This document shows, piece after piece, positions 4,685 through 12,705 of a stretch of 64,000 bases of DNA (position 1 is its first letter; each line of letters opens with the position of its first letter). This stretch comes from Lachnospiraceae bacterium (GTDB taxonomy: Bacteria > Bacillota > Clostridia > Lachnospirales > Lachnospiraceae): the NCBI GenBank assembly GCA_016284355.1, contig JAEEOQ010000099.1, positions 181 through 64,180 of the forward strand, given 5' to 3'. The position numbers were made by a program, and so were the translations under genes. Under the pieces are notes generated by a model. The model searched no databases. It had not been told where the DNA came from and saw only the letters and a program-made list of their open reading frames with translations.

Positions 4685-4722
4685 AAAAGCTGTGAACCGC
4701 AACCCGGTTCACAGCTTTTTTG
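4685..4722. terminator. Bidirectional rho-independent terminator
   Basis: A 12-bp GC-containing stem (AGCTGTGAACCG / CGGTTCACAGCT) with a 5-nt loop. It is flanked by AAAA on one side and TTTTTT on the other, and lies between the convergent TetR gene and the rSAM operon. Confidence 0.8.
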
Positions 4723-4875
4723 CTAGTCTTCTATTCCCTTTTGGGTCTCATCGATCAGTTCACTTACAAGTCTGTCTACTTCTTCTTTGTCCCCGTTTTT
4801 ATTAGCCTCTTTTATGGCCTTAAGCCTGAAAAGAAGTCCACGAAGATAACTTTTGAAAACTGCCATGTCTTCCAT
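4723..4875 (-). CDS. Small 50-aa helical protein, last gene of the rSAM/Cys-repeat operon (not in the ORF track)
   Basis: Hand translation gives MEDMAVFKSYLRGLLFRLKAIKEANKNGDKEEVDRLVSELIDETQKGIED. The ATG is preceded by GGAGAGGTGGTG. It lies 42 nt downstream of the rSAM stop and directly upstream of the terminator. I recognise no family. Confidence 0.4.
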   Translation of the reverse strand: MEDMAVFKSYLRGLLFRLKAIKEANKNGDKEEVDRLVSELIDETQKGIED

Positions 4876-4917
4876 AACACCACCTCTCCGTAATTATATT
4901 ATTTTTTTAGAGTTAAA

Positions 4918-6189
4918 TCAATCAAGTGAAAGTATATTTTTCACAAAATCCGCGTCAAGATTGCATTTGATCCGTTCCTTCATACCTTCCGCGCGGTAGA
5001 GGTGATTGAAGTAGTAGGCATTTGCAAGGGCTCTTGCTTTATGCATCCTGCAGATAAAGGTGGTTCGCTTGTCCGGCGTTCCGTAGCAGGTGTAATTGCC
5101 GGCGCTGCACCAGGCGCAGCCCTTTGCCACAGGGCAGTTATAGCACTCATCGGTGCTCTGAGACCGTCTTGTTATACAGTTCATGCATTTTATGCGGGAC
5201 TGCTCAAGGGGCCTTTTCCCGATACCGTTTTTAATGTCCCCTATGGTAAATGGCGGATACTTGTCTCCCACAGAGCTTTCCATGTAGCGAAGACACGGAA
5301 ACAGCTTACCGTCAGGGTCAATTGCCAGCATTTTCCCGGTGCCGCCGCACCAGTTCTCGTTGTCATCTTCTCCCATAGGCTGAAAAAAGTATTCCTCAAA
5401 CAGCGAGACATAGATTTTTTCGTAAAGCTTTTCTCTTATCATTAGATCTGCGATCTTCTTCAGTTCTCTGTAAAAGATCTTCTCGTCCCCTTCTTGCCAC
5501 ACATCTTCAAATACGCAGTTTGCATATATGTCGCGATACCCAAGCTCTATCATGTTAAGCACCGCATCGTAAAGATATGGCAGGTTCTCATGAGAAATAG
5601 TGATCTTAGAGCCAAAATTCCTGTCGGTTTTAAGCATATCAAGGGCCGGCTTTATGGCAAGGTCATAGCTTCCTCTTCCGTCAGGGAACTTTCGGCATGA
5701 GTCGTGAAGCTCTTTATTGCCGTCTATGGTAACGGTGTAACTTAGGTGATGTTCATGTTTTTTAAGAAACGCCTTTACCTTCGGGGTATAGATGGTGCCG
5801 TTTGAAGTTATAGAGACCATCCACCTGTCTTTGTATTTCATATCTCCCGTAAGGGTCTTTTCCTGAAAATAGTCAATTATCTCGTCCATAAGGTCAACAG
5901 CAAGCATAGGCTCGCCCCCGATAAACTCAAGGATAACCCCCGGCAGATGTTTTATATCAAGGTAATCATCAAACCCCTTATCTCCCGTAAAAAGAAGGTC
6001 GATAAATTTCTTTGCAGTCTCAATGTCCATGACCCTGTGGCCTTTGCATATCTGGTAGCAGTACGTACAGGCCAGGTTGCAGTCATCTGTTACCTGCAGC
6101 GTTATGGTCTTTACTATGCCCTCTTCCTTTAATACCGTATTTACAAAATCTCCGAATTCCTGTGCTCTCTTATATAGCTTCACGTGCAT
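4918..6189 (-). CDS. Radical SAM / SPASM-domain peptide (protein) maturase
   Basis: Cx3Cx2C motif in VTDDCNLACTYCYQ. The C-terminal SPASM-like cysteine cluster reads WCGGTGKMLAIDPDGKLFPC ... CMNC ... CYNCPVAKGCAWC. It is adjacent to a cysteine-repeat protein. Confidence 0.9.
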   Translation of the reverse strand: MHVKLYKRAQEFGDFVNTVLKEEGIVKTITLQVTDDCNLACTYCYQICKGHRVMDIETAKKFIDLLFTGDKGFDDYLDIKHLPGVILEFIGGEPMLAVDLMDEIIDYFQEKTLTGDMKYKDRWMVSITSNGTIYTPKVKAFLKKHEHHLSYTVTIDGNKELHDSCRKFPDGRGSYDLAIKPALDMLKTDRNFGSKITISHENLPYLYDAVLNMIELGYRDIYANCVFEDVWQEGDEKIFYRELKKIADLMIREKLYEKIYVSLFEEYFFQPMGEDDNENWCGGTGKMLAIDPDGKLFPCLRYMESSVGDKYPPFTIGDIKNGIGKRPLEQSRIKCMNCITRRSQSTDECYNCPVAKGCAWCSAGNYTCYGTPDKRTTFICRMHKARALANAYYFNHLYRAEGMKERIKCNLDADFVKNILSLD

Positions 6190-6760
6190 TCATTTCCTTT
6201 TTCTTTAATCTAAGTTTTCTGCTGCCAAAATCAAGAGTCCACTCGTAGAGGCAAAGTGGAAAGCCCTTTGGAAGTATTGTCTCTTGAAAGATAACAGCAT
6301 CCATGTAATAGTCGCCCGCCTTCTTTTCATAGTCATTTATCAGCCTGTTTAAGCTGTCTTTAAGGGAATCCCTTGAAAATGCAAACACCACATCATCAAG
6401 AGCCCGCTCCTTCTCATATCCGTCTCTTTGAAGTCTTTCAAAAGCTTCATCTCCTGCTGCCGAAAGGTCTGCATTTATCTCAGACGGCAGGTGCGCATCA
6501 TCAGGGTATATCTGCAGGGTACCTTCAGAATGGTTAACGTAATAATATGCACCCGCAAGATCCATATTTTTAGGGAAAAATCCGGTTTTAAGTCTTACTG
6601 CGATCTTTTCTCTTTCAAGCAGGTTTTTATCAAGATCCGGCTTAAAGGCAGGGATCTTTGCAGCAAGTTCCGTGTAAATGTTTACATACACATCATTTAT
6701 CATTATCTCGGTCAGAAAATCTTCAGGTATCTTAGTTTCATACAAAAGGTCAAATTTCAT
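6170..6760 (-). CDS. Hypothetical protein (196 aa), rSAM-system accessory candidate
   Basis: ATG preceded by AGGAG. It overlaps the upstream gene by 11 nt and the rSAM gene by 20 nt, consistent with translational coupling. No family recognised. Confidence 0.65.
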   Translation of the reverse strand: MKFDLLYETKIPEDFLTEIMINDVYVNIYTELAAKIPAFKPDLDKNLLEREKIAVRLKTGFFPKNMDLAGAYYYVNHSEGTLQIYPDDAHLPSEINADLSAAGDEAFERLQRDGYEKERALDDVVFAFSRDSLKDSLNRLINDYEKKAGDYYMDAVIFQETILPKGFPLCLYEWTLDFGSRKLRLKKKEMNAREAI

Positions 6761-7073
6761 CTGTTATTACTCCTGTATTTCCGTTTGCGGAAAGGAACAC
6801 ATTTAAAAACTCCGTGGTATCGCCAAAAATATATCGGATGTTAGCCACGCATGCGTATTTCCTAAGGATCTCTTTTCCGGCGCTATTTATAAACTTTACC
6901 TCGCTTACATTCTTGTCCGTAAATGAGACCGCGATCTCTTCCGGTGTCTTTTTGCCAAGTTCCTCCTCATTTATAAGAAAATCGTCAAATGCACTCTTTC
7001 CGGGCTCAGCCTTCAGGTTTGCCTGAAGCCTGTCTATTTTAAACTCTGTACCGTCTTTTAAAACTATCTTCAT
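6750..7073 (-). CDS. Hypothetical protein (107 aa), rSAM-system accessory candidate
   Basis: ATG preceded by AAAGGAAG, 51 nt downstream of the Cys-repeat gene. No family recognised. Confidence 0.6.
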   Translation of the reverse strand: MKIVLKDGTEFKIDRLQANLKAEPGKSAFDDFLINEEELGKKTPEEIAVSFTDKNVSEVKFINSAGKEILRKYACVANIRYIFGDTTEFLNVFLSANGNTGVITDEI

Positions 7074-7124
7074 GTATCTTCCTTTCGTGGTTCTTGGTTT
7101 TTGTTTATTTTCTATGGATCTCTT

Positions 7125-7811
7125 TTACTTAAAGGATGAGGACATACAGCTTGAGCCGCCGCAGCCCCCAAGGCATACTCCGGAGCAATTACCGGAGCAC
7201 TTGCTTGAACTTATTGCACACTGTCTTGTACAAACTCCTACGCAGCTTGTACATGCAGATGTACAGTTTCCTTTGCATGCAGATGTACACCCGGAGCACC
7301 CGCCGCTGCAGGTTCCGGTACAAGAGGTGCAGCCTCCGCTGCATCCACCGCTGCAGCCCGTACAGCTTCCGCTGCAGGTTCCCGCACAGCCTCCGCAATA
7401 TGCAGAGCAGGAAACGCAACTTCCCTCGCAGGAACCGGAGCATGAAGTGCAGGCAGAAACGCAGGCAGATATGCATAGTCCGCTGCATGCACCTGCGCAG
7501 GAGCTTTTGGCTCCGTATCTTTTTGTTTCTGCCGCAAGTCTGTCCACATGGGCAATAAGCTCTGTATCAAAGCCATCAGGTATAGGGTCGCCCTTTTTTA
7601 CTTCTTTAAGACCGTTTACGGGAGCTATCTTTAAAATGAGGTCGATGGTTTTTTGCCCGTGCTCTGCCATAACAGGGCTTCCTGCTTCAGGCACCAGGTT
7701 AAAATCATAGTCGCTTCCCGCAAACACGGTCAAAGACCCGTTGCCGTCTCTTCGAAGAAGTTCGCTTTTTATCTTTGCTTTTAGTGTATTGATGTCTTTT
7801 GCGCTTAGCAT
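7125..7811 (-). CDS. Cysteine-repeat protein (228 aa): about 104-aa Cys-free N-terminal domain plus a 125-aa array with 31 Cys; presumed substrate of the adjacent rSAM maturase
   Basis: The C-terminal sequence is CAGACSGLCISACVSACTSCSGSCEGSCVSCSAYCGGCAGTCSGSCTGCSGGCSGGCTSCTGTCSGGCSGCTSACKGNCTSACTSCVGVCTRQC...CSGNCSGVCLGGCGGSSC. The ATG lies 3 nt after the preceding stop. The ORFs on the opposite strand here are low-complexity mirror images. Confidence 0.85.
   Translation of the reverse strand: MLSAKDINTLKAKIKSELLRRDGNGSLTVFAGSDYDFNLVPEAGSPVMAEHGQKTIDLILKIAPVNGLKEVKKGDPIPDGFDTELIAHVDRLAAETKRYGAKSSCAGACSGLCISACVSACTSCSGSCEGSCVSCSAYCGGCAGTCSGSCTGCSGGCSGGCTSCTGTCSGGCSGCTSACKGNCTSACTSCVGVCTRQCAISSSKCSGNCSGVCLGGCGGSSCMSSSFK
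7128..7499 (-). repeat. Coding tandem repeat: C-x2-C-x3-C-x3 units (11 residues, 33 bp), about 6 clear copies inside a longer C-x2/3 array
   Basis: Units read directly: CEGSCVSCSAY, CGGCAGTCSGS, CTGCSGGCSGG, CTSCTGTCSGG, CSGCTSACKGN, CTSACTSCVGV. The region is visibly more GC-rich than its flanks. Confidence 0.85.
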
Positions 7812-7814
7812 AGA

Positions 7815-8075
7815 TTACCCCCAAACAGCCCTTGTGGTCTCCCAGGTTACTCCGTTGTAGTACTTTATAACTCCGCCGGCTCCGGTATCTACCCAAAGGC
7901 TACCCTTATCAGCAGGTACAGAAGGTGATATCACTACTTCTGTTTTTATGTTGTCTTTAAATGTCATGCCGGAGGCAAGGGCATTTACAGGGTTTGCCAT
8001 CATAATCCCCGCCGCTGTAAGCGCTGTACCTTTTACAAAATCTTTTCTTGTGATCTTCTTATCAAATATGCTCAT
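7815..8075 (-). CDS. Small secreted protein (86 aa) with a twin-arginine-like (RK variant) signal peptide
   Basis: The N-terminus MSIFDKKITRKDFVKGTALTAAGIMMANPVNALA/SG resembles the Tat consensus S/T-R-R-x-F-L-K, followed by a hydrophobic region and an AxA cleavage site. AAGGAGA RBS. It lies between the coiled-coil gene and the Cys-repeat gene. Confidence 0.7.
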   Translation of the reverse strand: MSIFDKKITRKDFVKGTALTAAGIMMANPVNALASGMTFKDNIKTEVVISPSVPADKGSLWVDTGAGGVIKYYNGVTWETTRAVWG

Positions 8076-8084
8076 TTTTTCTCC

Positions 8085-9785
8085 TTAACCGTTATATATC
8101 ATTATCCGCTCTACGTAAGTGTCTGCAGGGTCTGCGATGTAAATACGCATATAGCCCTTATCGCCCTCATACCTTACTCTGCTTTGCGGCAGCACCGTGT
8201 AGAGAACCTCCACATGGGAGTCTGCCGTAAATGCGCTGTTTCTTATCTCGTAAAAATATTCGCCCTCTGCACTCTCCCAGCTTTCCTTTGCGATCTTAAA
8301 GCCTTTTATGTAGGTGATGCCAAGTCTTTCTTCGAGCCCGTCAAGTCTTCCGGCAAGAGCATCCCTCTCTGTTTTTGCATTTTCTTTTTCAGTTTCAATG
8401 CTGCCTGTAAGCTCTGTTTTGGCGTCTTCTATAGCTTTTTCAAAGTTTTTAGCAAGGTCATCTCTTGCGCTTTCAAGCTCGTTTCTTACAGATTCAAGGC
8501 CTAAAGCAAGGTCCTCTTTGGTATTTTCAAGATCTTCCTTGGTACTTTCAAGATCTTCCTTGGTACTTTCAAGGTCTTCCTTTGTTTCTGCAAGGTCTTC
8601 CTTTGTTTCTGCAAGGTCTTCTTTGGTGGCCGCAAGATCTTCCTCGGTGCCTGTCAGTTCTTCCCTGGTCTCGGCAAGATCCTCGTTTACCTCATCGATC
8701 CGCTCGTCAAGCCTTGATGATGTGGCCTCATTTAAAAGGTCGTAAAAGCCTTCAAGGATCTTCCTGCTGTAATCATTCTCCTTTGTTTTTATCTGCATGA
8801 GGCTGCTGATATCAAGATCTGCTGCCCCCTCAAGAGCAGTGGTGATCTCTGATTCGTATAGATCAATGGCAGCAAGAAGTTCTCCCCTCTTAGCTTCTGC
8901 TACATCAGGAAGCCTAAGGCCTGCCGTCTTAGCCCTTGCAAGGCCTGCGTATGCTACAACTCTTTCTGCAAGTTCCGCAGCATTTATGCCGCGGCGAAGG
9001 GAGTCTATAAGCTCTTTTGTATTTCCGTTGCTTGTGTTAAGGTCTTCTGTCAGGACGTCAAGCCGCAAGGAAAGATTTGCCACCTGCCTGTCAAGGCCCT
9101 TAAAGCGCGCCTCTCCCTCAGCCATATACGCGTAAAGTTTTTCGGAAAGCCCTGAGATAGATGCCATAAGGCTTGCACTCTTGCTTTCCGTAAGCCCGGT
9201 AAGCTCAGTTTTTATCTGTTCAAAGCGAAGGTCCGTGTTTTCCTTGTCTTCTCCCCAGGTGTGGTTAAGGTTTTCAAGCTTTTCGCTGACCGCCCTTACC
9301 TCTTCCTTAAAGGAGCCAAGGTTATTTCTGTATTCTTGTAAATTTTCTCTGTATTCTTTTAAATCGTCTCTGTATTCTTTTATCTCTGTTTCATTTTTGC
9401 CACTTAGCTTAACTTCACTCTTCAGTTCCCCGTCAATGCGCTCGATGCTGCTAAAAATGCTGTCAATCGAAGCATTTACCGTTTCAAGACCTGTGATAAG
9501 GGCGGGCGCATCCTCTTTTTTTGCATCTTTTACCTTTTCCTTAAGGTCTTCTATATCCGCCACCAGGGCGGCGATCTTTTCGTCTATCTCTTCTTTGTAT
9601 TTGCTGCTTGCTCCGGTGTTTTCCGCTTTTCCACTTTCCGCGGATTTCCCGCTCTCATTTTCCACACGTGTGGAAACTTTTTCCGCCGCTGCTCTCTTCC
9701 CGCTGCCGCTTACTAGGCCCACACTCGCAAAAAGCGCGAGCACAAGGCTAAGGGCAAGAGCTGTGGCTGTTATCTGTTTTTTCAT
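8085..9785 (-). CDS. Signal-anchored coiled-coil protein (about 566 aa) with heptad tandem repeats and a small beta-rich C-terminal domain
   Basis: I place the start at the internal ATG at 9785 (MKKQITATALALSLVLALFASVGLVSG, with AGGAGA upstream). The track ORF extends to 9857 inside tatC. Most of the protein is long charged heptad-rich sequence. Confidence 0.8.
   Translation of the reverse strand: MKKQITATALALSLVLALFASVGLVSGSGKRAAAEKVSTRVENESGKSAESGKAENTGASSKYKEEIDEKIAALVADIEDLKEKVKDAKKEDAPALITGLETVNASIDSIFSSIERIDGELKSEVKLSGKNETEIKEYRDDLKEYRENLQEYRNNLGSFKEEVRAVSEKLENLNHTWGEDKENTDLRFEQIKTELTGLTESKSASLMASISGLSEKLYAYMAEGEARFKGLDRQVANLSLRLDVLTEDLNTSNGNTKELIDSLRRGINAAELAERVVAYAGLARAKTAGLRLPDVAEAKRGELLAAIDLYESEITTALEGAADLDISSLMQIKTKENDYSRKILEGFYDLLNEATSSRLDERIDEVNEDLAETREELTGTEEDLAATKEDLAETKEDLAETKEDLESTKEDLESTKEDLENTKEDLALGLESVRNELESARDDLAKNFEKAIEDAKTELTGSIETEKENAKTERDALAGRLDGLEERLGITYIKGFKIAKESWESAEGEYFYEIRNSAFTADSHVEVLYTVLPQSRVRYEGDKGYMRIYIADPADTYVERIMIYNG
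8499..8687 (-). repeat. 21-bp (7-aa) coding tandem repeat, TKEDLxx, about 8 copies
   Basis: Protein: EDLAETREELTGTEEDLAATKEDLAETKEDLAETKEDLESTKEDLESTKEDLENTKEDLALG. The DNA shows near-identical 21-mers (for example ggtactttcaagatcttcctt twice, and tttgtttctgcaaggtcttcc twice). Confidence 0.8.
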
Positions 9786-10494
9786 CTTTTTTGATTTCTC
9801 CTGTTGTTTTTTTGCTTTTAAGTAAGGCGCCAAGGGTACAGACTTCATAAACCGCAAGAAGCGGAAGCGCCACCGCTATCATGCTGAAAATATCCGGTGG
9901 GGTCATAAATGCCGCAAGAAGAAAAGCAAGCGGATACACCGCAGGTCTGATCTTCTTTAATATGGCAGACCCCACTATCCCCCTTCTGACAAGTAAAAGA
10001 AGCAAGGAAAAAGCAAACGCAAGGATCCCGCAGGAAATGCCGGCACTTAAGAGGAAAGATAACGCTTTTTCCAGCGTAAATTCAGCCCTAAGCCCCTGTC
10101 CTTCCGAAACTTTTATAAAGAGCCTTACTGCAGCGTATACAAGAAATCTTACTCCGCAGATTGCCCCTGTTATGAAGGCCGCAAAAGGTGCGATCAAAAG
10201 TCTTTTTTTGACGCGGATCTGCAGATAGGATGCCAGAGAAAACAGGGCAAACGGGGCTGTCAGCACAAGGGCCGATACCGCAGCCAGATTTACGCCGCTT
10301 ACAATGATCTCGACAGGTGATAACATACGTATATCAAGTCCCATCTTTTTTGACTCATTTACAATTGTTTTAAGTATTTCCGGAGATAAAATGTAAAATA
10401 AGATAAACAGAATTCCCCAGATAATAAGACAAAAAGCTGTTTGCTTTCTTGCTTCTTTAATATGTTCGCCCACGGTCATAAGGTCATCTTTCAT
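9748..10494 (-). CDS. tatC: Twin-arginine translocase subunit TatC
   Basis: Six-TM protein with the characteristic TatC motif region (AFMTPPDIFSMIAVALPLL) and a typical N-terminal amphipathic segment (GEHIKEARK). It overlaps the end of tatA. Confidence 0.85.
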   Translation of the reverse strand: MKDDLMTVGEHIKEARKQTAFCLIIWGILFILFYILSPEILKTIVNESKKMGLDIRMLSPVEIIVSGVNLAAVSALVLTAPFALFSLASYLQIRVKKRLLIAPFAAFITGAICGVRFLVYAAVRLFIKVSEGQGLRAEFTLEKALSFLLSAGISCGILAFAFSLLLLLVRRGIVGSAILKKIRPAVYPLAFLLAAFMTPPDIFSMIAVALPLLAVYEVCTLGALLKSKKTTGEIKKDEKTDNSHSSCP

Positions 10495-10627
10495 TTCCCA
10501 TGCCGCCGCTCTTTAAATAGTCCATAGACTGTTTTAATGCCTCTGTGACCTTTGGAAGCTGCTTTGGTCCAAATAACAAAACAACCACAGCAAGTATCAC
10601 CAGGGCTTCAGCCATTCCGATGCGCAA
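10484..10627 (-). CDS. tatA: Twin-arginine translocase subunit TatA/E (47 aa, not in the ORF track)
   Basis: Hand translation from the TTG at 10627 (GGGAGGTG lies 7 nt upstream) gives (M)RIGMAEALVILAVVVLLFGPKQLPKVTEALKQSMDYLKSGGMGNER. This has the TatA hallmark of a TM helix followed by FGPKKLP-like and amphipathic segments. An alternative ATG is at 10615. Confidence 0.65.
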   Translation of the reverse strand: MRIGMAEALVILAVVVLLFGPKQLPKVTEALKQSMDYLKSGGMGNER

Positions 10628-11035: not shown

Positions 11036-11995
11036 TTACTCCTTATCAAACTCCCACACTCTGGTGTAGGTCTGCTCTTTACCGGGTCTTAAAGATATTG
11101 TTACGAAATTTTCTGCGCACATAACGTGGTCTGTGCCCCAGATGGTGATCTTTTCAGGGAAGAAGCTTCCGCTTTCTCGCACCGATAGTCCTTCTATCGT
11201 ATCTTTAAGTTCGTAGTAAAAGTCAGGGAACTTAGCCTCGCTTTCATCTACAAGCCTACTTTTTGGAAGCTCAAGGAAAATATTAAGACCTTCCACATTT
11301 TTAGTCCAGCTTATCTCGTTTCCTTTTACGCTAATAGGCGACTCTGCCTTTCCGCATACTATTCCGTGCTCATCCGTCTTATCAAAGATAAAGCTTTCGC
11401 TTTCAAGGCTTTTTGCAAAAGGAACTGTCATTTTATAGTCAGGACCGATGGGTTTGCCGTTTGCATTAAAGAAGTTGTGCTGGTACTCATTGATATTTAT
11501 ATCTTTTTTGCCGGCATTTGCAATTACGGTCTTAATAAGGATCTTGTTTCCTGTTACGGATAGTTTTTTTGTTATCTCAATAGGGAAAGCAGGTGTTTCT
11601 TTGTCTCCTGTTTCAGGGCTTTGGGTAAATGTAAAGCCGTCTTCTTCCTGCTTTATATCTATCTTAAAGGTCTTTGCCTTATAATCTCCGAATATGTAAA
11701 AAGGCATTCCGTCTTTTAGCTGGCAAAGAAGCCCCACCCCGGGTTTTGTAAACCACTCGCCCTCTTTTAAGGACTGAAGGTCTTCAGGAACCGAAAACTC
11801 TGCAGAAAGTCCAAAACCATTTGCAGAAACTCTGCCTTCTTTTATCTGTTCGCTTGTTCCAAAAGAATATTTTCCGTCAAGTACTATCTCTTTTACTCTG
11901 CAGGCCGCGTCAAAACGGAGCGTAGAGCGCTCATTTCCTTCCGGAATCTCCAAAACCAGCCTTAACCTGTCTTTTTCAAATACAATATCTTTCAT
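11036..11995 (-). CDS. Hypothetical protein (about 319 aa), beta-rich, possibly galactose-mutarotase-like fold
   Basis: Long ORF with normal composition. I place the start at MKDIVFEKDRL (ATG at 11995), because the track ORF extension to 12148 runs through a terminator and two tRNA genes. The fold suggestion is a weak impression only. Confidence 0.6.
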   Translation of the reverse strand: MKDIVFEKDRLRLVLEIPEGNERSTLRFDAACRVKEIVLDGKYSFGTSEQIKEGRVSANGFGLSAEFSVPEDLQSLKEGEWFTKPGVGLLCQLKDGMPFYIFGDYKAKTFKIDIKQEEDGFTFTQSPETGDKETPAFPIEITKKLSVTGNKILIKTVIANAGKKDININEYQHNFFNANGKPIGPDYKMTVPFAKSLESESFIFDKTDEHGIVCGKAESPISVKGNEISWTKNVEGLNIFLELPKSRLVDESEAKFPDFYYELKDTIEGLSVRESGSFFPEKITIWGTDHVMCAENFVTISLRPGKEQTYTRVWEFDKE

Positions 11996-12022
11996 ATGTA
12001 AGCCCCCGTTTTTCATAGTACG

Positions 12023-12049
12023 AAAAAAGGAGATACCGTAGTATCTCCT
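12023..12049 (-). terminator. Rho-independent terminator after tRNA-Leu
   Basis: The minus strand reads AGGAGATAC-TACG-GTATCTCCT followed by TTTTTT. Confidence 0.65.
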
Positions 12050-12055
12050 AAGTAA

Positions 12056-12135
12056 TGCGGGTGACAGGACTTGAACCTGCACGCTCTCGCACAAGAACCT
12101 AAATCTTGCGTGTCTGCCAGTTCCACCACACCCGC
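12056..12135 (-). tRNA. tRNA-Leu (anticodon UAG)
   Basis: The minus strand reads GCGGGTG...CAAGA-TTTAGGT-TCTTG...long variable arm...GGTTCAAGTCC...CACCCGCA. Cloverleaf arms identified by eye. Confidence 0.85.
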
Positions 12136-12140
12136 AAAGC

Positions 12141-12211
12141 TGGGCCAACTGGATTCGAACCAGCGAGTGCAGGAGTCAAAGTCCTGTGCCTTACCGCTTG
12201 GCGATGGCCCA
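12141..12211 (-). tRNA. tRNA-Gln (anticodon UUG)
   Basis: The minus strand reads TGGGCCATCGCCAAGCGGTAAGGCACAGGA-CTTTGAC-TCCTG...GGTTCGAATCC...GGCCCA. Confidence 0.85.
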
Positions 12212-12227
12212 ATAATGCTACCCGAAT

Positions 12228-12236
12228 ATTATAACA
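12228..12236 (-). promoter_or_regulatory. Candidate extended -10 promoter (TGTTATAAT) for tRNA-Gln/Leu
   Basis: On the minus strand about 17 nt upstream of the tRNA-Gln 5' end and downstream of the internal terminator. The -35 is weak. Confidence 0.4.
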
Positions 12237-12260
12237 TGATTAATCTTCGGAGTGAATAAA

Positions 12261-12299
12261 AAAGTAAAAAAATAGAGCAAAGAATTAATCTTTGCTCTA
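12261..12299 (-). terminator. Rho-independent terminator immediately after tRNA-His
   Basis: A 10-bp stem (TAGAGCAAAG / CTTTGCTCTA) with a 7-nt loop, followed on the minus strand by TTTTTTTAC. Confidence 0.65.
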
Positions 12300-12375
12300 G
12301 GGTGGATACAGGGATTCGAACCCTGGGCCTCCAGAGCCACAATCTGGCGCGCTAACCAGCTGCGCTATACCCACC
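12300..12375 (-). tRNA. tRNA-His (anticodon GUG)
   Basis: The minus strand reads GGTGGGTATAGCGCAGCTGGTTAGCGCGCCAGA-TTGTGGC-TCTGG...GGTTCGAATCC...ATCCACCC, including the extra 5' G typical of tRNA-His. Confidence 0.85.
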
Positions 12376-12416
12376 ATGATATGAAATAAGCAACACTAAT
12401 ATTGTGTTGCCCGTAA

Positions 12417-12490
12417 TGTGCCAGAAGGGATTCGAACCCCCGACAACCGGCTTAGAAGGCCGATGCTCTATCCAGCTGAGCTACTAGCAC
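12417..12490 (-). tRNA. tRNA-Arg (anticodon UCU)
   Basis: The minus strand reads GTGCTAGTAGCTCAGCTGGATAGAGCATCGGC-CTTCTAA-GCCGG...GGTTCGAATCC...GGCACA. Confidence 0.85.
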
Positions 12491-12549
12491 AAACCTACCA
12501 AGCAAAGTGATCAATGCAATGGTAATTAATATGTTTAAAAACATATTAA

Positions 12550-12620
12550 AGCGGGTGATGGGAATCGAACCCACGTATCCAGCTTGGAAGGCTGGTGTTC
12601 TACCATTGAACTACACCCGC
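12550..12620 (-). tRNA. tRNA-Gly (anticodon UCC)
   Basis: The minus strand reads GCGGGTGTAGTTCAATGGTAGAACACCAGC-CTTCCAA-GCTGG...GGTTCGATTCC...CACCCGCT. Confidence 0.85.
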
Positions 12621-12630
12621 AAGTTAAAAG

Positions 12631-12705
12631 TCGGGGTGACAGGATTCGAACCTGCGACCTCTTGATCCCAAATCAAGCACTCTAGCCAAACTGAGCCACA
12701 CCCCG
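12631..12705 (-). tRNA. tRNA-Pro (anticodon UGG)
   Basis: The minus strand reads CGGGGTGTGGCTCAGTTTGGCTAGAGTGCTTGA-TTTGGGA-TCAAG...GGTTCGAATCC...CACCCCGA. Confidence 0.85.

Follow-up and report, generated by a model that had tools for sequence, protein, structure and literature searches.

Several radical S-adenosylmethionine (rSAM) enzymes of the SPASM type are known to cross-link cysteine-containing substrates. PapB works on repeated cysteine motifs along its substrate PapA (freyrasin), CteB acts on the SCIFF peptide CteA (thermocellin), and QhpD, another rSAM/SPASM enzyme, cross-links the cysteine-containing subunit QhpC of quinohemoprotein amine dehydrogenase in the cytoplasm before export; to our knowledge, QhpC uses no dedicated twin-arginine translocation (Tat) system. 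A further rSAM family, TIGR04115, has been defined in silico by its CXXX-repeat targets. Here we analysed a stretch of 64,000 nucleotides from a Lachnospiraceae bacterium (contig JAEEOQ010000099.1; hereafter the window), in which a TIGR04115 maturase, a cysteine-repeat protein (Cys228) and divergent TatA and TatC proteins are encoded in one putative operon. Our results suggested, with a probability that we put at roughly 0.6, that a prophage tail-fibre cassette gave rise to this locus, which now belongs to the cell and has been coupled to a dedicated, very divergent TatA-TatC.

PapB and CteB are the closest characterised relatives of the window maturase, PapB by hidden Markov model (HMM) and CteB by structure. 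However, the window enzyme scores under the cutoffs of both and lacks their N-terminal recognition domain; its substrate has 228 residues with 31 Cys and almost no Asp or Glu, and its product would not be a small diffusible peptide. The window also differs from the QhpD/QhpC pair in substrate, cross-link acceptors and export route, and QhpC has no phage ancestry. Two other systems resemble parts of the locus. In Tat hitchhiking, a partner without a signal crosses the membrane bound to a signal-bearing subunit, as in hydrogenase-2 (HybO/HybC) and DmsA/DmsB of E. coli. Likewise, a small protein of the window (p86) bears a signal and Cys228 bears none, and the two are here proposed to form a complex; the signal, however, has R-K or R-x in place of R-R, and the translocase is a private, divergent TatAC of Lachnospiraceae. 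In T2/S16-type phages, gp38 is a separate small tip adhesin, encoded after the fibre gene, with an attachment domain and Gly-rich hypervariable distal repeats. The position of gp38 in the gene order matches that of the cysteine-repeat protein, for which no kinship in sequence or fold is claimed; gp38 needs no rSAM enzyme, and the cysteine-repeat protein is a candidate virion component at most.

Compared with other TIGR04115 systems, the window shares a maturase above the family cutoff, an adjoining CxxxC/CxxC target and a small companion-like protein beside the maturase, and it adds a TatAC of its own, a tip protein that bears a signal, and a coiled coil with a membrane anchor. By its sequence, it is thus a predicted Tat-coupled, cell-owned form of the known in-silico CXXX-repeat rSAM family. 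A literature search found no description of the biology, the chemistry or a phage tail-fibre setting of TIGR04115, and publications on 'ranthipeptide' clusters of Clostridia dealt with SCIFF-type clusters where a type was named and otherwise gave no type.

The maturase and its cysteine-repeat target

The first-pass annotation of this DNA, made from the sequence without database searches, had proposed that the rSAM protein fits the CXXX-repeat-target maturases, and the HMM search bore this out. The best match was TIGR04115 (449.9 bits, cutoff 350, E = 8e-135, residues 27-393) and not the anSME, SCIFF or PapB models. The next-best models, those of PapB, CcpM, QhpD, Nif11 and the SCIFF maturase, all remained far under their cutoffs: the PapB model NF047865 gave 194 bits (cutoff 340), with the CX3[D/E] repeats of PapB substrates absent as well, and the QhpD model TIGR03906 gave 117 bits. 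An anaerobic sulfatase maturase was rejected (TIGR03942, 74.8 bits against a cutoff of 349), and none of the nearby genes was noticed as a sulfatase. The motif C37-x3-C41-x2-C44 and the SPASM cysteines C281, C299, C349, C352, C358, C361 and C380 were invariant across 31 homologues. The AlphaFold2 (AF2) model of the enzyme (predicted local distance difference test, pLDDT, 88) matched the fold of CteB best (Foldseek E = 2e-20), followed by anSME and ChlB. CteB was also the only sequence match in the PDB, and because this alignment starts at CteB residue 84, the window enzyme has no N-terminal recognition element of the kind used for RiPPs (peptides that are made by ribosomes and modified after translation), the RiPP recognition element (RRE). 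The family is very large, with 3,317 clusters (90% identity) at E <= 1e-30. Some homologues of about 590-600 residues (P0050, P0053 and P0087) are interrupted by inteins (Hint/intein families PF07591, PF14890 and PF13403).

Cys228 contains exactly the 31 cysteines that had been noted before, and they occupy 118 residues, not 125. Successive cysteines show a spacing of 4 in 21 cases and of 3 in 7 cases, and the residues between are mostly Gly, Ser, Thr and Ala, with one Glu and no Asp in the whole array. Among homologues, the array is a hypervariable run of CxxxC/CxxC with 11 to 145 Cys. Cys228 is 43% identical to the version in a prophage (L001). Neither Cys228 nor its conserved N-domain gave a match in Pfam, NCBIfam, PHROG or the PDB, the N-domain profile having been compared with the PDB and PHROGs. 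The precomputed Pfam label PF27846 ('tSAM_targ_Cxxx_rpt') is attached to a Cys-repeat target in a P2-like prophage (L172 11605-12327); the Pfam scan of Cys228 itself gave no match.

The cassette elsewhere is mainly a prophage tail-fibre module

To place the locus among its relatives, 80 species-level genome loci were fetched and their neighbouring ORFs (open reading frames) were clustered, and 80 viral loci were sampled from at least 478 IMG/VR contigs that encode an rSAM relative. The conserved core of the genome loci consisted of the rSAM gene (77 loci), a Cys228 homologue (60 loci; this is the adjacent target by which TIGR04115 is defined, and Cys228 adjoins the maturase in the window as well), the family of the 40 C-terminal residues of p86 (51 loci) and a companion of about 112 residues just upstream of the rSAM gene (48 loci). 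The next commonest neighbours were Baseplate_J, Mu Gp48, a sheath initiator, Tail_P2_I, YQBQ, a LysM protein and an Amidase_2 endolysin. At least 46 of the 80 genome loci carried a phage mark, and 5 of 9 further loci had tail-fibre or minor-tail PHROG matches, which raises the count to at least 51. A Cys228 homologue was also present in 76 of the sampled viral loci, and the N-domain of Cys228 was found in 49 genome loci and 70 viral loci. The cultured-phage collection INPHARED yielded only 8 distant, unannotated matches.

A tip motif could be detected in 32 genome loci, and in 28 of these an ORF ending in it stood directly upstream of the Cys gene, mostly at a distance of 1-55 nt. In the prophage L001, the genes for the tape measure, Dit and Tal are followed by a coiled-coil fibre that ends in the tip motif, a companion-like protein, the Cys protein, a homologue of p107 (one of the small proteins of the window), a p196-like protein, the rSAM enzyme and an endolysin. 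The window has the same order as L001 and L172, a tip motif and then the Cys-repeat/rSAM cassette. Homologues of p107 occupied the matching position in the prophage loci L001, L003, L007, L010, L027 and L031. The next-nearest relatives of the window rSAM also lie in prophages (L001, L003, P0012, P0025 and P0003), of which P0003 is in a P2-like myovirus tail cluster and P0012 and P0025 are in other phage contigs. Judged by this gene content, the TIGR04115 'peptide maturase system' is in most genomes a distal accessory of a phage tail fibre, and the comparison demonstrates a phage ancestry for the predicted core of tip, Cys protein, companion and rSAM. The earlier reading of the block as a free-standing, RiPP-like system had to be given up, since its core genes belong, for the most part, to tail-fibre modules of prophages.

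A probable companion could be traced in the window as well. A profile built from 48 companions matched the C-terminal half of p196 (17 bits, E = 2e-6, profile positions 14-102, including the W-x-LDF motif), and it gave no match to p50, a small helical ORF that was also considered for this role. The p50 reading was dropped, as the profile fits p196 instead and p50 is missing from a 97% relative (L081 2178-2249), in which an indel of about 170 bp removes it relative to window positions 4723-4917. In an 84% relative, p50 is 80% identical (L173 1991-2143). It is a real but dispensable gene, and its membership in the operon is doubtful. Similar ORFs are found in L023 and L028, some 4 kb downstream of the rSAM gene. 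No NCBIfam model, with TIGR04114 as the expected companion family, matched any of the companion candidates.

A Tat-type signal, a fibre tip and a divergent TatAC

The protein p86 joins two parts of different kinds. Its residues 47-86 (about 40 residues) align with the extreme C-terminus of tail-fibre proteins, with the tip motif consensus APxxTxxLWIDTxxGGxxKYYNGxxWxxxxxVWG, and its N-terminal part is a signal peptide. The 'Tat-like signal' that had been read from the sequence therefore stands as a signal with an AxA site, with two amendments: the pair is R-K and not R-R, and the rest of the protein is a phage fibre tip motif. The canonical pattern S/T-R-R-x-F-L-K is absent, as p86 has T-R-K-D-F-V-K. 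No other ORF of the window bears a Tat-type signal of this kind. When p86 was used for an exhaustive HMMER search, 178 representatives were obtained, including at least 25 'signal + tip' clusters (50% identity) of proteins of 85-190 residues with AxA sites. Their signal motif is S/T-R-[K > R, A, E, T]-[D/E]-F-[L/I]-K, with mostly K in the second position and R in only 2 of the 25. When the viral contigs were scanned with a narrow pattern, no signal + tip protein like p86 was detected. The tip motif was also observed in up to 13 copies in giant proteins with as many as 3,277 residues (P0128, P0140, P0141, P0149, P0158 and others), and it is therefore also a repeat unit of very large proteins, possibly of the surface or of phages.

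Predicted TatA and TatC are, by family models, genuine members that are very divergent. TatA matched PF02416 with 37.9 bits (gathering score 21) and TIGR01411 with 37.8 bits, under the cutoff of 53.9; TatC matched PF00902 with 87.6 bits (gathering score 25.1) and TIGR00945 with 75.8 bits, under the cutoff of 132.7. The window TatC can be aligned from end to end with structures of E. coli TatC and keeps E15, an aromatic residue at the F94 position and TPPD (E. coli numbering), while E103 is replaced by Q and R104 by I. Of the three other Tat-linked loci described below, two have E and one has K at the E103 position, and none has kept R104. The single conserved Arg of the signals and the loss of the E103/R104 equivalents from TatC hint, speculatively, at a co-evolved and relaxed signal recognition. 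A word-indexed search of 5.8 billion proteins with the window TatC returned only 4 relatives, of which 3 lie in unrelated contexts beside a GHL10 glycosidase.

The coiled-coil protein begins with KK and then a hydrophobic stretch, and its family matches were to coiled-coil families only. The length of 566 residues reported at first is right if the ATG at 9785 is the start, and the TTG at 9857 gives 590. A tandem repeat of 21 bp x 8.2 at 8506-8678, with a further stretch at 9327-9382, encodes TKEDLxx heptads. In a locus related at 99% (L166), the coiled coil has two more heptads, an insertion of 39 residues in the membrane-proximal linker and a deletion of 7 residues relative to the window; stalk length thus differs among strains because heptad copy number and indels vary. 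Its C-terminal domain matches the coiled-coil protein of a divergent Tat-linked locus, L167 (E = 5e-5). A visual likeness of this domain to phage-fibre domains was not supported by phmmer, and hhalign gave a probability of 1.6%; we therefore make no claim of a fibre origin for the coiled coil.

Recurrence of the Tat linkage

The neighbourhood comparison confirmed that the link between tatA/tatC and the cassette recurs, and it also showed how rare the link is. Among homologous maturases, co-occurrence with the Tat genes holds as a layout that recurs in divergent lineages; it does not hold as a rule, for tatA/tatC stood upstream of the cassette in only 1 of the 80 genome loci (L016), and TatC was found in none of the 80 viral loci. 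L016, from another Lachnospiraceae, encodes two TatA-like proteins, TatC and an anchored 830-residue coiled coil, which are followed by an 82-residue signal + tip protein (TRADFLKG), the Cys-repeat protein, the rSAM enzyme and the companion. A metagenome scan with the p86 alignment found the same system at about 99% identity (L165 and L166) and two further, divergent Tat-linked systems. The first of these, L167, has two tatA genes, tatC, a 751-residue coiled coil, the Cys protein, the companion, the rSAM enzyme and a signal + tip protein (SRKEFLKR); the second, L168 (a 245-kb contig), has two tatA genes, tatC, a signal + tip protein (SRGEFLKR), the Cys protein, the companion and the rSAM enzyme. 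In L167 (positions 7091-7612 and 8248-8811), a second Cys-repeat protein without the N-domain follows the rSAM gene, and the signal-bearing tip protein has an extra C-terminal domain that matches C-terminal domains of phage fibres (L042, L056, L131 and L134). The TatC proteins of the four Tat-linked lineages share only 22-33% identity, and none of their rSAMs is closer to that of another Tat-linked lineage than to rSAMs carried by phages. This pattern, from a neighbour-joining tree only, tentatively suggests repeated capture or recombination of the cassette.

A second group of cellular loci was found in diderm bacteria. There, small CXXX-repeat precursors themselves carry the canonical signal [S/N]-R-R-x-F-[F/I]-K, in the forms SRRQFFK, NRRDFFR and NRRAFIK, in Muribaculaceae (L072, L074 and L076) and Chitinivibrionales (L075). 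In two of these loci, L074 and L076, tatA-tatC are located 3-4 kb downstream. These loci have two tandem rSAM genes, and L076 also encodes a 320-residue protein that is SPASM-only in appearance. Tat-type signal peptides were thus seen in Tat-linked and diderm loci and not in the narrow-pattern scan of viral contigs, and such signals appear to occur just where the cassette is cellular. The diderm signals and the recurrent linkage lend comparative support to the idea, put forward when the locus was first noticed, that a product modified in the cytoplasm is exported folded by Tat, which nevertheless remains a proposal.

Proposed mechanism and alternative explanations

In the mechanism that we propose, the cytoplasmic rSAM enzyme, aided by the putative companion part of p196, would move along the 31-Cys array and modify it, most likely by multiple thioether cross-links such as those made by PapB, CteB and QhpD. 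The N-domain of Cys228 would then dock on the tip domain of p86, an interaction suggested by the near-obligate adjacency of the two genes. The folded, cross-linked complex would leave through the private TatAC on the signal of p86 and be cleaved at ALA|S; such hitchhiking on the signal of a tip protein would apply to the window, L167 and L168, while the diderm precursors bear the signal themselves. Export in the folded state by a dedicated TatAC is proposed because a cross-linked protein cannot pass Sec and the modification needs the cytoplasm, and this TatC-dependent step is predicted for the window from its TatAC. Finally, and speculatively, the product would come to rest at the coiled-coil stalk, itself inserted by Sec, or close to it, and serve there as a surface fibre or adhesin that is insensitive to redox conditions. 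In the phage arrangement, the last tail-fibre gene ends in the tip motif, with the Cys protein directly after it and then the companion and the rSAM enzyme. Relative to this, the tip motif would have become a separate 86-residue protein with a Tat-type signal, a membrane-anchored coiled coil of variable length would stand in place of the fibre shaft, and tatA-tatC would head the operon. Possible roles at the surface, all of them speculative, include those of an adhesin, a fibre, and a phage-receptor decoy or blocker.

Several observations weigh against this reading. We found no member of TIGR04115 with a demonstrated chemistry in the literature, and as the residues between its cysteines mean that the acceptors cannot be the Asp/Glu used by PapB and QhpD, the modification of Cys228 may be something else. 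The single-sequence AF2 model of Cys228 was unusable (pLDDT 38.8), and the companion profile gave no RRE/PqqD or other consistent match in Pfam or the PDB. The signal of p86 has an R-K pair, which canonical Tat systems would be expected to handle poorly, and the window TatC is without the E103/R104 equivalents, so that a Tat-type function is itself a prediction. For the putative p86-Cys228 complex, the evidence is gene adjacency, and for the transcription of the nine ORFs as one unit it is their layout. The Cys protein of L016 has no N-domain and has its own hydrophobic N-terminus, and hitchhiking therefore cannot be universal. Lastly, sequence comparison does not link the coiled-coil protein to phage fibres, given the hhalign result above.

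Other explanations were weighed against the same data. If the export substrate were p86 alone, Cys228 and the rSAM enzyme would stay in the cytoplasm and might, for instance, help the tip domain to assemble or act as its chaperone. In the window only p86 has a signal peptide, and genes that follow tail-fibre genes often encode assembly chaperones, yet the diderm precursors carry their RR signals on the Cys-repeat protein, which makes the array the cargo there; moreover, a mature tip peptide of 52 residues would hardly require Tat by itself, and a hypervariable array with a dedicated rSAM enzyme is unexpected for a chaperone. We regard this explanation as unlikely. Alternatively, the array might bind metal or Fe-S, with Tat needed for a cofactor cargo and the rSAM enzyme limited to a minor modification or to cluster handling. 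The dense CxxC/CxxxC spacing is like that of metal-binding motifs and cofactor-loaded proteins are the classic cargo of Tat; against this, the nearest characterised rSAM relatives all make thioethers on Cys-containing peptides, and the same proteins occur in tail modules of phages, for which no use of a redox cofactor is evident. This, too, seems improbable to us.

The absence of a leader protease, an ABC exporter and an immunity gene from both the operon and the conserved neighbourhood bears on another explanation, in which the locus would make a conventional secreted RiPP or bacteriocin: the N-terminal 100 residues of Cys228 would be a leader, the core would be cross-linked and released, and the phage link would be that of 'moron' toxin genes. 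The rSAM enzyme does fall in the RiPP-maturase SPASM clade, and the variation in array size resembles that of diversifying toxins. However, the N-domain is long, conserved and positionally coupled to the fibre tip motif, and the cassette sits inside structural tail modules, between fibre and endolysin, which leaves a RiPP quite unlikely in our view. A decayed prophage remnant that lies beside housekeeping tatAC genes by chance is strongly disfavoured. It would suit a cassette of phage origin near a tRNA cluster, a common area of integration, but four divergent lineages share the linkage, which speaks strongly against chance adjacency of tatAC, and in each of them the tip protein has a Tat-type signal and an AxA site. 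The ORFs are also all intact and tightly packed, the system is kept at 84-99% identity in other samples, and these TatC proteins are atypical and not housekeeping-like.

Preferring a cell-owned, Tat-coupled derivative of the fibre cassette, we also offer a broader and more tentative proposal, which goes beyond what we would consider probable: TIGR04115 enzymes may cross-link a structural tail-fibre tip protein in phages of anaerobes, as a redox-proof substitute for disulfides, and bacteria may have captured the module several times and displayed it on their own surface by hitchhiking through a private Tat system with relaxed, single-Arg recognition. If the reading given here is correct, a very large rSAM family (more than 3,300 clusters and hundreds of viral contigs) would gain a biological role, and it would be one of few in which a radical-SAM enzyme modifies a structural protein of virions or of the surface. 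It would also account for Tat in an operon of an anaerobic Firmicute, since cargo cross-linked in the cytoplasm cannot thread through Sec. Genome miners probably count TIGR04115 loci as RiPP clusters, whereas most look like phage tail-fibre accessories. The Tat-linked loci form a natural set of single-conserved-Arg signals paired with cognate divergent TatC proteins that could be used to study signal recognition, and the locus may be an example of a gut bacterium that has put a receptor-binding module of a phage to new use as a surface fibre.

Operon layout and surroundings

The nine co-directional ORFs run on the minus strand from 10627 to 4723 and lie where the first-pass annotation had placed them (Table 1). 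As it had stated, the genes at all 8 junctions either overlap or are no more than 51 nt apart: TatA/TatC, -11 nt; TatC/coiled coil, -110 nt if translation starts from the TTG at 9857 (there is still an overlap from the ATG at 9785); coiled coil/p86, +9 nt; p86/Cys228, +3 nt; Cys228/p107, +51 nt; p107/p196, -11 nt; p196/rSAM, -20 nt; and rSAM/p50, +42 nt. A hairpin was searched for in the 51-nt spacer after the Cys228 gene, and none was found. The borders proposed at the same time, a candidate promoter and a strong bidirectional terminator, were also recovered, the promoter-like site being weak evidence by itself. A GGAGG ribosome-binding site lies between the promoter-like site and the TTG start of tatA; a promoter scan of the region gave 15 sites against 11.8 +/- 4.3 expected, barely over background. 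The terminator hairpin has a free energy of -30.3 kcal/mol (z = -6.2), which none of 200 shuffled sequences equalled, and it can work both ways because an A-run and a U-run lie on either side of its stem.

Table 1. Features of the locus (window positions) and of the diderm loci (positions within each locus)
Feature	Position	Strand	Remarks
TatA	10484-10627	minus	47 aa, TTG start; one transmembrane helix, FGPKQLP hinge, short amphipathic helix
TatC	9748-10494	minus	248 aa, divergent; PF00902 match
Signal-anchored coiled-coil protein	8085-9857	minus	590 aa from TTG; C-terminal beta-rich domain of ~80 aa
p86	7815-8075	minus	signal peptide + tip motif; TRKDFVKG, hydrophobic region, predicted ALA/S cleavage (ALA|S)
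Cys228	7125-7811	minus	CXXX-repeat protein, 228 aa; conserved N-domain of ~100 aa and 31-Cys array (residues 105-222)
p107	6750-7073	minus	accessory cassette member; homologues at the same position in prophage loci; no family match
p196	6170-6760	minus	C-terminal half (residues 105-190) probably of the companion family, plus N-terminal extension
rSAM/SPASM maturase	4918-6189	minus	423 aa; TIGR04115
p50	4723-4875	minus	small helical ORF; own promoter-like sites at 4921-4893
Promoter-like site	10691-10663	minus	TTGATT-17-TATCAT, sigma-70-like; consensus match only, upstream of tatA
Bidirectional intrinsic terminator	~4685-4722	none	15-bp perfect stem, common to the operon and the convergent TetR gene
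Diderm locus L072	8508-8792, 12150-12491
Diderm locus L074	5221-5574, 9596-9916
Diderm locus L075	4162-4689
Diderm locus L076	8260-8784

The genes around the operon are housekeeping genes: rnfC/D/G/E, a TetR regulator, Ham1, a metallophosphoesterase and an Amidase_3 protein. Seven tail-gene HMMs, with baseplate, tape-measure, sheath and endolysin genes sought, gave no match in the window. Pfam, NCBIfam and PHROG scans of p86, Cys228, p107, p196 and p50 gave nothing meaningful, even at E = 10. A 97%-identical rSAM was found in a Lachnospiraceae metagenome-assembled genome with the same TetR-rnf flank. The Rfam scan, which would also report riboswitches and leaders, found only six nearby tRNAs; these genes (Leu, Gln, His, Arg, Gly and Pro) lie at 12055-12705, starting some 1.4 kb upstream of the operon. 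An ORF called at its greatest length, 11036-12148, reaches into tRNA-Leu, and its true start is probably the ATG near 11995, which gives a protein of 319 residues without a Pfam match. Shadow ORFs over the Cys-array gene (7072-7710 and 7136-7558 on the plus strand, 7189-7576 on the minus strand) are not genes and arise from its repetitive, GC-rich Cys/Gly/Ser codons.

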